Source of the DNA: Escherichia coli
Lineage (GTDB): Bacteria > Pseudomonadota > Gammaproteobacteria > Enterobacterales > Enterobacteriaceae
Strand: one strand, 5' to 3'
DNA length: 64,000 nucleotides
Assembly (NCBI RefSeq): GCF_044324875.1
Contig: NZ_CP172185.1
The notes under the pieces were generated by a model, which saw nothing but the letters and a program-made list of their open reading frames with translations, was not told the DNA's origin and did not search any database. The translations under genes and the position numbers were made by a program. Of the stretch, positions 58,058-61,185 are shown one piece after another; position 1 is the stretch's first letter; every line of letters starts with the position of its first letter.

Positions 58058-59476
58058 TTACGCGTTTTTCAACATCCACTCAATTTCTGTTTCTGTGATG
58101 AGGCGCTCAAACTGCAACAGCTCATCATTTTTACAGGCGTGATAGACATGGCAGAAGCGTTCGCCTAAATAGCGGCGCAGGTGATCATTCTCGATAAACT
58201 CACCCAGGGCATCGCTCTGGCGAATCGGGAAGGGTAAGCCTTCCTGTTCCAGCCCGTTACCTTCGACTTCTTCCTGTAATGGCAGTTCGTTATCAAGGCC
58301 ATGCAAAATACCGGCAAAAATCGCCGCCATCACCAGATACGGGTTGGCATCGGCACCCGCCACGCGATATTCCACGCGGTGATTATGGCGATCGCCGCAG
58401 GGAATACGCAGGGCGACGGTGCGGTTGTTATGGCCCCACGACGCCTGCGTCGGTACATACATCCCCGGCTGGAAGCGGCGATACGAGTTCACGTTTGGTG
58501 CCAGCAACGCCATTGATGACGGCATCAGATCGATCATTCCGGCGAGCATTTTTTTCAGCAGCGGCGAATCTTCGCCTTCCGCGTCAGAAAGCACGTTCTC
58601 GCCACGATTATTTTGCATACTGATATGGATATGCATCCCGCTGCCCGCGTGCTCTTCATACGGCTTCGCCATAAAAGTGGCGTGCATCTTATGCTTTTCT
58701 GCCATCAGACGCACCAGGCGTTTTAGTGCCAGCGCATCATCGCAAGCTTCCAGCACGTTATCGGTATGGTAAAGATTGATTTCAAACTGACCTGGCGAGG
58801 CCTCGGCGACCGCGCCATCTGCCGGAATCAGCTGTAACTGCGCCAGCTCATCAATATCATTGAGCACGTCGGCGAAGTGGTTGAGGTTATCAACGGAGTA
58901 AACCTGGCTTTGTGTATTGCGGTCATCGGTGCCGGGCGCGCAGGGCGGTTGCAGATATCCTTCAGCGTCGCGCTGGCGATCCAGTAAATAGAACTCCAGC
59001 TCTACCGCTACGACCGGGAACAATCCGCGCTGGCGCAGCTGCTGCCACAGGCGGTTAAGAACGTTCCGCGGCTCAACGTCAAAGGGAGCGCCATCTTCAT
59101 CGACCATGGTCAGGAGCATCTGACCGATAAACTCTGGATCGGCGGCAGAAGGGGTTAAGGAACCGAGAACAGGAACACAGGTACGATCCGGCTCGCCCAT
59201 TTCCTGACCCAGGCCCGCTTCTTCTACTACGTTGCCCAGAATATCCATTGCAAACACCGAGGCCGGGAAATAACACCCTTTCTCGAGCTTCTTCAGGCTT
59301 GAAACAGGAATACGTTTTCCACGGAAGCAACCATTCAAATCGGTAAGTAAAACATCAACATATTGCGTATTCGGGTAGCGCTCCAGGTAGCGTTTCACTT
59401 CCTGCGTAAAGGCGCTACCCCGCCTCTCTTCTGACTGCTGAACAAAGTTCTCTACTTCAACGATATTGGTTTCCAT
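58058..59476 (-). CDS. puuA: gamma-glutamylputrescine synthetase
   Basis: 472 aa from METNIVEVENF; glutamine-synthetase fold. Confidence 0.95.
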   Translation of the reverse strand: METNIVEVENFVQQSEERRGSAFTQEVKRYLERYPNTQYVDVLLTDLNGCFRGKRIPVSSLKKLEKGCYFPASVFAMDILGNVVEEAGLGQEMGEPDRTCVPVLGSLTPSAADPEFIGQMLLTMVDEDGAPFDVEPRNVLNRLWQQLRQRGLFPVVAVELEFYLLDRQRDAEGYLQPPCAPGTDDRNTQSQVYSVDNLNHFADVLNDIDELAQLQLIPADGAVAEASPGQFEINLYHTDNVLEACDDALALKRLVRLMAEKHKMHATFMAKPYEEHAGSGMHIHISMQNNRGENVLSDAEGEDSPLLKKMLAGMIDLMPSSMALLAPNVNSYRRFQPGMYVPTQASWGHNNRTVALRIPCGDRHNHRVEYRVAGADANPYLVMAAIFAGILHGLDNELPLQEEVEGNGLEQEGLPFPIRQSDALGEFIENDHLRRYLGERFCHVYHACKNDELLQFERLITETEIEWMLKNA

Positions 59477-59519
59477 GATTCTTCGCCTTTGGTTTGTTTT
59501 CCGCTCGTTATCAAAGCGT

Positions 59520-59534
59520 AAAATATAATGACCA
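59520..59534. promoter_or_regulatory. PuuR-operator-like motif in puuA-puuD divergent region
   Basis: AAAATATAATGACCA resembles the 15-bp PuuR recognition sequence as I recall it (AAAATATAATGAACA). Confidence 0.35.
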
Positions 59535-59687
59535 CCATTCGAATCTGTATGCAAACTAAATGTTTGTCAAATGTTAAATTGAGTTTGCAAAAATGAAAAC
59601 CCACTGCTAGATTGAAAAAATATTGAACATAAAGGTCATTTAAAGCGCAGTAATGGCGATAATTTAGTCCACTTTGTGAGATTGAGC

Positions 59688-60452
59688 ATGGAAAATATAA
59701 TGAACAATCCGGTTATCGGTGTCGTAATGTGCAGGAACAGGCTTAAGGGTCATGCGACCCAGACTCTGCAAGAAAAGTACCTGAATGCCATCATCCACGC
59801 AGGCGGCTTGCCAATTGCGCTACCACATGCGCTGGCGGAACCGTCGTTACTTGAACAACTTTTGCCGAAACTCGATGGTATTTATCTTCCTGGTAGTCCC
59901 AGCAATGTGCAGCCGCACCTATATGGTGAAAACGGCGATGAGCCTGACGCCGATCCCGGGCGTGATCTTCTGAGCATGGCGTTAATTAATGCCGCACTCG
60001 AAAGGCGCATCCCCATTTTCGCCATCTGCCGGGGTTTACAGGAACTGGTGGTGGCAACCGGTGGTTCGTTGCATCGCAAGCTGTGCGAACAGCCTGAATT
60101 GCTGGAACATCGGGAAGATCCCGAACTGCCGGTGGAGCAGCAATATGCGCCGTCGCATGAAGTTCAGGTTGAAGAGGGGGGATTACTGTCTGCGTTGTTA
60201 CCTGAATGTAGCAACTTTTGGGTAAACTCTCTGCATGGACAAGGGGCGAAGGTCGTTAGCCCACGGTTGCGTGTTGAAGCTCGCTCGCCGGATGGCTTAG
60301 TTGAGGCGGTTAGCGTCATCAATCATCCTTTTGCGCTGGGCGTACAGTGGCACCCGGAATGGAACAGTAGCGAGTACGCGCTTTCGCGTATATTGTTCGA
60401 GGGCTTTATCACCGCTTGTCAGCACCATATCGCTGAAAAACAGCGACTCTGA
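59688..60452 (+). CDS. puuD: gamma-glutamyl-gamma-aminobutyrate hydrolase
   Basis: 254 aa from MENIMNNPVIGVV; class I glutamine amidotransferase, catalytic Cys in AICRG. Confidence 0.93.
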   Translation: MENIMNNPVIGVVMCRNRLKGHATQTLQEKYLNAIIHAGGLPIALPHALAEPSLLEQLLPKLDGIYLPGSPSNVQPHLYGENGDEPDADPGRDLLSMALINAALERRIPIFAICRGLQELVVATGGSLHRKLCEQPELLEHREDPELPVEQQYAPSHEVQVEEGGLLSALLPECSNFWVNSLHGQGAKVVSPRLRVEARSPDGLVEAVSVINHPFALGVQWHPEWNSSEYALSRILFEGFITACQHHIAEKQRL

Positions 60453-60478: not shown

Positions 60479-61036
60479 ATGAGTGATGAGGGACTGGCGC
60501 CAGGAAAACGCTTGTCGGAAATCCGCCAGCAGCAGGGGCTTTCACAACGTCGTGCCGCCGAACTCTCCGGGCTGACTCACAGTGCTATCAGTACGATAGA
60601 ACAAGATAAAGTCAGCCCTGCCATCAGTACGCTGCAAAAGCTGCTGAAGGTGTATGGTCTGTCACTCTCGGAATTCTTTTCCGAGCCGGAAAAACCTGAT
60701 GAGCCGCAGGTCGTCATTAATCAGGACGACTTAATTGAGATGGGCAGTCAGGGTGTGTCAATGAAGCTGGTTCATAACGGTAACCCGAATCGCACGCTGG
60801 CGATGATCTTTGAAACGTACCAGCCGGGCACAACCACTGGGGAAAGAATTAAGCATCAGGGTGAGGAAATAGGCACTGTACTGGAAGGTGAAATTGTTCT
60901 GACGATTAATGGTCAGGATTACCACCTCGTCGCGGGGCAAAGTTATGCCATTAATACCGGCATCCCGCACAGTTTCAGTAATACGTCGGCAGGTATTTGC
61001 CGAATTATCAGCGCCCATACGCCCACCACGTTTTAA
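60479..61036 (+). CDS. puuR: HTH-XRE/cupin repressor PuuR
   Basis: 185 aa; N-terminal HTH (LSQRRAAELSGLTHSAISTIEQ), C-terminal cupin. Confidence 0.93.
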   Translation: MSDEGLAPGKRLSEIRQQQGLSQRRAAELSGLTHSAISTIEQDKVSPAISTLQKLLKVYGLSLSEFFSEPEKPDEPQVVINQDDLIEMGSQGVSMKLVHNGNPNRTLAMIFETYQPGTTTGERIKHQGEEIGTVLEGEIVLTINGQDYHLVAGQSYAINTGIPHSFSNTSAGICRIISAHTPTTF

Positions 61037-61185
61037 TCTTTTTGTTCTGTAAGCCGGGTAAGCGCAATGCGCCCGGCAATCTATAAAGAATGTCGCCAGA
61101 AATAAACGGGCATACGGCCCGGGGATCTCTGCGCCCTGACGTTCACAAACTGCATATATCTGATAGACGTGAAACAGGAGTCATA

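Follow-up and report, generated by a model that had tools for sequence, protein, structure and literature searches.

The region between the divergent genes puuA and puuD of this Escherichia coli genome is, with a probability that we put at roughly 90%, the known bidirectional control region of the Puu cluster, which carries PuuR-type repeats and a published site for ArcA-P. The control region is real, functional and already known, and it implies no new biology. Within the window, by which we mean the whole stretch of 64,000 nucleotides that was analysed, the spacer occupies positions 59477–59687 (211 bp) and contains 34% GC against 50% for the window as a whole, and the AT-rich spacer delimited in the earlier note was placed correctly between the two start codons. 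Specifically, puuA (glutamate-putrescine ligase, 472 aa) lies on the minus strand at 58058–59476 with its ATG at 59476, and puuD (gamma-glutamyl-GABA hydrolase, 254 aa) lies on the plus strand at 59688–60452, where the ATG at 59688 opens the sequence MENIMNNPVIG. The repressor gene puuR (60479–61036, plus strand) was said to lie two genes downstream but is in fact the next gene after puuD and the second gene of the puuD operon, with a gap of 26 bp between the puuD stop and the puuR start. The products match their families, PuuD scoring 574 bits against the NCBIfam equivalog NF008471 and PuuR 385.5 bits against the PuuR equivalog NF007408 (cutoff 211), and PuuR combines the Pfam domains HTH_3 (residues 13–66) and Cupin_2 (residues 111–178). 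The gene order puuP-puuA / puuD-puuR-puuC-puuB is the same as in K-12, and collinearity with K-12 extends over the segment between sapB and puuB, interrupted by one 121-bp element between puuR and puuC that is found in K-12 only. All six of these Puu proteins are free of internal stops and carry 0–5 amino-acid changes relative to K-12 (PuuA none, PuuR none with 185/185 residues identical, PuuD one, PuuB two, PuuP four and PuuC five), so the claim of an intact operon holds for puuP, puuA, puuD, puuR, puuC and puuB, while puuE, which is cut by the window end 8 bp into the gene, falls outside the assessment.

The earlier note had proposed a comparison with the K-12 puuA–puuD intergenic sequence, and this gave complete identity: positions 59440–59740 match K-12 MG1655 (NC_000913.3) at 301 of 301 bases. 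The identity covers the whole spacer and at least 45 bp of each flanking gene, and no nucleotide difference from K-12 is seen anywhere across 59337–59797. The locus is thus the same as that of K-12, with an identical PuuR and a control region without any difference, and the cluster outside the control region differs from K-12 by 1.2–4.6% at the nucleotide level (puuD 1.2%, puuA 2.3%, puuC 2.6%, puuP 2.7% and puuB 4.6%). The absence of differences across 59337–59797 while the flanking genes diverge fits purifying selection on the control region. Since the spacer is identical to that of K-12 MG1655, published K-12 results should apply directly here. PuuR operators in the K-12 puuA–puuD intergenic region, which also holds the divergent puuAP and puuDRCBE promoters, were reportedly described by Nemoto et al. 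in 2012 (J Bacteriol 194:3437). According to PMC9951944, which cites Nemoto 2012, PuuR occupies four motifs in the puuA–puuD spacer, and putrescine causes its release; PuuR binding at the puuA and puuD promoter regions is also given in PMC9397018 and PMC9068703, the latter reporting putrescine induction via PuuR for puuE and puuP too. The PMC9951944 supplement gives constructs without motif positions, and the RegulonDB PuuR matrix is used in PMC12645834 without the matrix itself being reproduced.

The motif that the earlier note had named as PuuR-like, AAAATATAATGACCA, is indeed present at 59520–59534, is conserved, and lies in a spacer beside the gene for a PuuR equivalog; what had been described as a single 15-mer is repeated, with two further copies on the same strand. 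The 15-bp PuuR recognition sequence, which we take to be AAAATATAATGAACA, was searched on both strands of the 64-kb window and gave three matches at two or fewer mismatches, all of them here, within 187 bp, on the plus strand and in the same orientation. Copy 1 (AAAATATAATGACCA, 59520–59534), which lies in a conserved block at 59518–59537, has one mismatch to this assumed consensus; copy 2 (AAAAAATATTGAACA, 59615–59629) has two; and copy 3 (AAAATATAATGAACA, 59692–59706) has none and lies inside puuD codons 2–7 (MENIMNN), which puts the best of the three copies outside the interval 59477–59687 that the earlier note had considered. When the 240 bp around the site were shuffled 20,000 times with dinucleotide composition preserved, 0.0073 matches at two or fewer mismatches were expected and no shuffle reached three; with the only three such matches to AAAATATAATGAACA in 64 kb all falling here, the motif is beyond chance. 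In K-12 coordinates (NC_000913.3, window position plus 1,301,432) copies 1, 2 and 3 correspond to 1360952–1360966, 1361047–1361061 and 1361124–1361138. A repeat search that used no consensus recovered the same three copies as a direct-repeat family, and copies 2 and 3 share an additional direct-repeat family. A full-text search for the string AAAATATAATGAACA among the available papers gave no match.

The copies may have weak dyad symmetry, as a matrix built from copies 1–3 also scores fairly well on the reverse strand at two of them, copies 1 and 3. A symmetric 18-mer model derived from the cross-species consensus, TGGnCAATATATTGnCCA, was tried and abandoned in favour of the asymmetric 15-mer, as it gave unrelated window matches at equal mismatch counts. 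In its general layout the locus resembles those of other XRE-family helix-turn-helix and cupin repressors that respond to small molecules at divergent promoters: PuuR likewise combines an HTH_3 with a Cupin_2 domain, the PuuR-type sites overlap the candidate −10 elements and the deduced transcription start, and puuR lies inside the regulated operon. Unlike in those systems, the sites at this locus recur in a single orientation and show weak palindromic character at most.

Conservation beyond E. coli follows the same elements. A scan based on PuuD, with one genome per species, gave 41 Enterobacterales loci with a divergent puuA, from Escherichia, Pseudocitrobacter, Klebsiella, Raoultella, Citrobacter, Enterobacter, Buttiauxella, Cedecea, Yokenella, Pluralibacter, Franconibacter, Hafnia, Erwinia and Serratia; puuR lies right after puuD in 39 of the 41, and the other two end within puuD. 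Spacer length ranges from 205 to 239 bp across the compared loci. An alignment of 41 distinct spacers (40 from other Enterobacterales and that of the window) resolves into sharp conserved blocks separated by unconserved sequence, with identity expressed as the share of spacers that carry the E. coli base. By this measure the copy 1 block (59518–59537) stands at 81%, copy 2 (59615–59629) at 86% and a block covering copy 3 (59688–59706) at 80%; the region of the ArcA site (59549–59591) reaches 84%, with 92% in a core segment at 59559–59576 that contains most of the ArcA box, and the most conserved segment of the spacer, CTGCTAGATT at about 59604–59614, reaches 95%. A further block at 59654–59671, which we call block D, stands at 80% between flanks of 43% and 59%. 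The gaps between blocks range from 42 to 59%, except for the short gap at 59538–59548, which is at 66%. Within copy 1 the bases ATATAAT and CCAC are nearly invariant across the 41 spacers, as is AATATTGAAC within copy 2, and all 39 loci with an adjacent puuR have two or three strong matches to the matrix of copies 1–3 upstream of puuD. In copy 3, the pattern ATGG..AATATA..ACA is kept across genera while the encoded N-termini differ (MENIMNN, MGNIFDK, MGNILTD), and this pattern of substitution suggests that constraint on the DNA, and not on the protein, shapes the first codons of puuD.

Outside these loci, GC-rich loci without an adjacent puuR contain no matches to the 15-mer matrix. Loci of the alphaproteobacterial Kiloniella spp., in which regulators were assessed within a 3-kb flank, show a puuA-like gene divergent from puuD but lack puuR within those 3 kb; most of their spacers, which are AT-rich, carry a single moderate 15-mer match (for example TCAATATAACGAACA, approximately 11 bits), which could reflect chance or a distant PuuR-like system.

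Block D (TGGCGATAATTTAGTCCA, 59654–59671, plus strand; approximately 1361086–1361103 in NC_000913.3) is a candidate for the fourth PuuR site, for a proximal −10 element (GATAAT, 59658–59663), or for both, and we consider it probably a PuuR site on the basis of its pattern of conservation. Its cross-species consensus, TTGGCAATAATTTAGTCCAG, agrees by eye with the copy 3 consensus at 14 of 20 positions, and conservation extends for 8 bases (TTAGTCCA) past the −10 hexamer. In addition, the literature count is four PuuR motifs (as given in PMC9951944), and only three clear ones are otherwise present. Scored with the matrix of copies 1–3, block D ranks 62nd of 127,962 window positions, with approximately 0.2 such matches expected by chance in the spacer, a placement that is suggestive but not decisive. 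The competing explanation is that block D is not a PuuR site but the −10 element of a second, proximal and possibly sigma-S-dependent puuD promoter. As a 15-mer it is a poor match, with six mismatches, and its ATAAT is nearly invariant even though the expected −35 region upstream is unconserved, a feature typical of sigma-S-dependent or activator-dependent promoters; moreover, puuA and puuD are reported to be rpoS-dependent in vivo (PMC3141248). We give this explanation a minority share of the probability, well short of even odds, and the two roles may be combined in one element that serves both as PuuR site and as proximal −10.

The elements ATGCAAAC (59549–59556) and TTTGCAAA (59584–59591), which the earlier note had listed as repeats alongside the PuuR-like motif, are present but belong, as its outer repeats, to a published ArcA site and not to PuuR. 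This 43-bp site of four direct repeats, ATGCAAACTAAATGTTTGTCAAATGTTAAATTGAGTTTGCAAA at 59549–59591 on the plus strand, is identical to the one in a supplementary table of Park et al. 2013 (PLoS Genet, PMC3798270), where it is located in K-12 at U00096.2 1359005–1359047 and its four repeats are scored at 2.6, 2.7, 11.7 and 1.4 bits. Its 18-bp core ArcA box, ATGTTTGTCAAATGTTAA at 59560–59577 on the plus strand, is the same as the published box atgtttgtcaaatgttaa, scored there at 14 bits, and the motif AAATGTT occurs at 59558–59564 and again at 59569–59575, 11 bp apart, which is the spacing of ArcA repeats. The locus shares with the ArcA-P multi-direct-repeat operators of that study the same 43-bp site without any difference, including core repeats 11 bp apart. 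As given in PMC3798270, an ArcA ChIP-seq peak lies at puuD/puuA, and in an arcA mutant puuA is derepressed 15.3-fold and puuDR 10.6-fold.

The two outer elements also lie almost wholly within the arms of an inverted repeat, which a repeat search placed at 59550–59561 and 59578–59589 with 12-nt arms that are 92% complementary. Such a repeat has the form expected of a site for a dimeric helix-turn-helix protein, and its arms are weak as ArcA repeats (2.6 and 1.4 bits) yet 72–82% conserved, so it might be read as a PuuR operator or as the target of some other dimeric regulator, for instance FNR, for which, as for ArcA, sites in the spacer are described in a review (as given in PMC9397018). We regard this as improbable. 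The arms are unlike the 15-mer, with 5–6 mismatches in the best alignments in the stretch; no good match to TTGAT-N4-ATCAA was found there by eye; and the whole 43 bp form a single ArcA site under the ChIP-seq peak (according to PMC3798270). That the arms are conserved would be accounted for just as well if they carry −35 hexamers, TTGCAA (plus strand) and TTGCAT (minus strand). The arms (TGCAAAC... / ...GTTTGCA) may thus be conserved, although weak as ArcA repeats, because they are the −35 hexamers of two back-to-back promoters, both of which would be occluded at once by one ArcA-P array with a strong central box while PuuR would separately block each −10 or start point. We put forward this arrangement tentatively, at odds clearly below one half, and the doubling of the outer ArcA repeats as −35 hexamers goes beyond what the available text of PMC3798270 says. 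Binding of the arms by a further, undescribed dimeric regulator is less likely.

Taking ArcA-P as the occupant of the 43-bp site, its position relative to puuD helps to locate the puuD promoter. PMC3798270 gives the site as spanning −70 to −28 relative to the start of puuDR, so the puuD +1 should be at about 59619. A candidate puuD promoter at 59585–59613 on the plus strand fits this position: it consists of the −35 hexamer TTGCAA (59585–59590), which falls in the right-hand arm of the inverted repeat, a 17-bp spacer and an extended −10, TGcTAGATT (59605–59613), that is invariant across the compared genera, and the start near 59619, obtained by arithmetic from the PMC3798270 entry, is 6 nt after the −10 hexamer. 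We infer an extended −10 promoter for puuD from this agreement, and a simple promoter scan did not list it, as it falls below the threshold of the scan. Relative to the deduced start, copy 2 would span approximately −4 to +11, block D approximately +36 to +53 and copy 3 approximately +74 to +88. For puuA, for which Park et al. give ‘no TSS’ (PMC3798270), the minus strand offers two candidate −10 hexamers, CATTAT (59530→59525) and TATATT (59527→59522), both inside copy 1, and a possible −35, TTGCAT (59554→59549), overlaps the left arm of the inverted repeat at a distance of 18 bp from CATTAT. The match is poor (−35 3/6, −10 4/6, 18-bp spacer), and the puuA promoter would on this assignment have its −10 inside 59522–59530 on the minus strand. 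That copy 1 is kept only as a puuA −10 with AT-rich, UP-like sequence and is not a repressor site is very improbable: it does hold TATAAT on the plus strand and TATATT and CATTAT on the minus strand at approximately 40–45 nt from the puuA start codon, and conservation is to be expected of AT-rich promoter elements anyway, but the 15-mer occurs in the same orientation at two further places, across the puuD start and within the coding part of puuD, that have no need of a puuA promoter element, its conservation runs beyond the hexamer to G.CCAC, PuuR binding has been assigned to the puuA–puuD spacer (according to PMC9951944), and the two roles are not exclusive, as repression is expected to work through an operator that overlaps the −10.

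The sole match of the promoter scan, TTGTGA and TATAAT separated by 16 bp (59674–59701), was set aside; it falls within copy 3 and codons of puuD, its TATAAT is lost in most other genera, and it is probably a by-product of the operator sequence.

With the spacer read as a shared PuuR and ArcA control region, the elements could operate together as follows. PuuR, with its XRE-type helix-turn-helix and cupin domains, would bind the three clear same-orientation 15-bp copies and probably the degenerate fourth. On copy 1 it would cover the puuA −10 and on copy 2 the puuD start point, while from the candidate fourth site and from copy 3, which fall within the leader and opening codons of puuD, it may act as a roadblock. 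The divergent promoters would thus stand back to back, with PuuR blocking each of them at its −10 or start point and with ArcA-P, on the four-repeat site between them, covering both −35 regions and repressing both directions anaerobically. Release of PuuR by putrescine would then induce puuA and the puuD-puuR operon, and the circuit would be autoregulated because puuR lies within the operon that it regulates. In this scheme the match to K-12 and to the published ArcA site and the repeated, conserved motif come from the sequence comparisons, PuuR binding, its release by putrescine and ArcA occupancy come from published work, and the promoter hexamers, the fourth site and the roadblock are our proposals.

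The result has little significance beyond correct annotation. It does describe a compact bidirectional control region in which PuuR, responding to putrescine, and ArcA, a global regulator responding to redox state, share 211 bp, and in which the opening codons of a regulated gene contain one of the operator copies. PuuR-based putrescine biosensors presently use the whole spacer (according to PMC9951944), and the cross-genus map of constrained bases could guide their design.

Several other elements were considered. An Rfam scan of 59300–59900 found no RNA element, its best score of 17.5 bits against a gathering score of 39 being a sub-threshold chance match. By eye, a sigma-54 look-alike (TGGCGA-N5-TAGT at 59654), an FNR look-alike (TTGAT-N4-ATCAA) and a CRP look-alike (TGTGA at 59675) were all poor matches.

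A 601-bp query from the region has matches in 4,371 of 5,426 complete E. coli genomes, where the genes are annotated as puuA and puuD, this annotation being counted in 4,369 complete genomes. Approximately 19% of these genomes (1,055 of 5,426) have no puuA–puuD match, and the neighbouring pspF is present in nearly all. In strain Ecol_732 (NZ_CP015138.1, 12331–13978), only a 108-bp pseudogene remnant separates ymjA from pspF, and the entire puuP–puuE cluster is absent as a single block.

Divergence from K-12 is uneven across the cluster in the window, as puuR differs by 0.2% and both spacers by 0%, compared to 4.6% for puuB, which hints at mosaic recombination or at strong constraint around puuR. 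The puuR–puuC spacer (61037–61185) is 149 bp long here versus 274 bp in K-12, and the 121-bp K-12 element has no counterpart in it. This element, which may resemble the ERIC/IRU intergenic repeat, is a dispersed repeat; E. coli genomes carry it at 9 places each in the median, and 2,791 records contain a copy with at least 99% identity.
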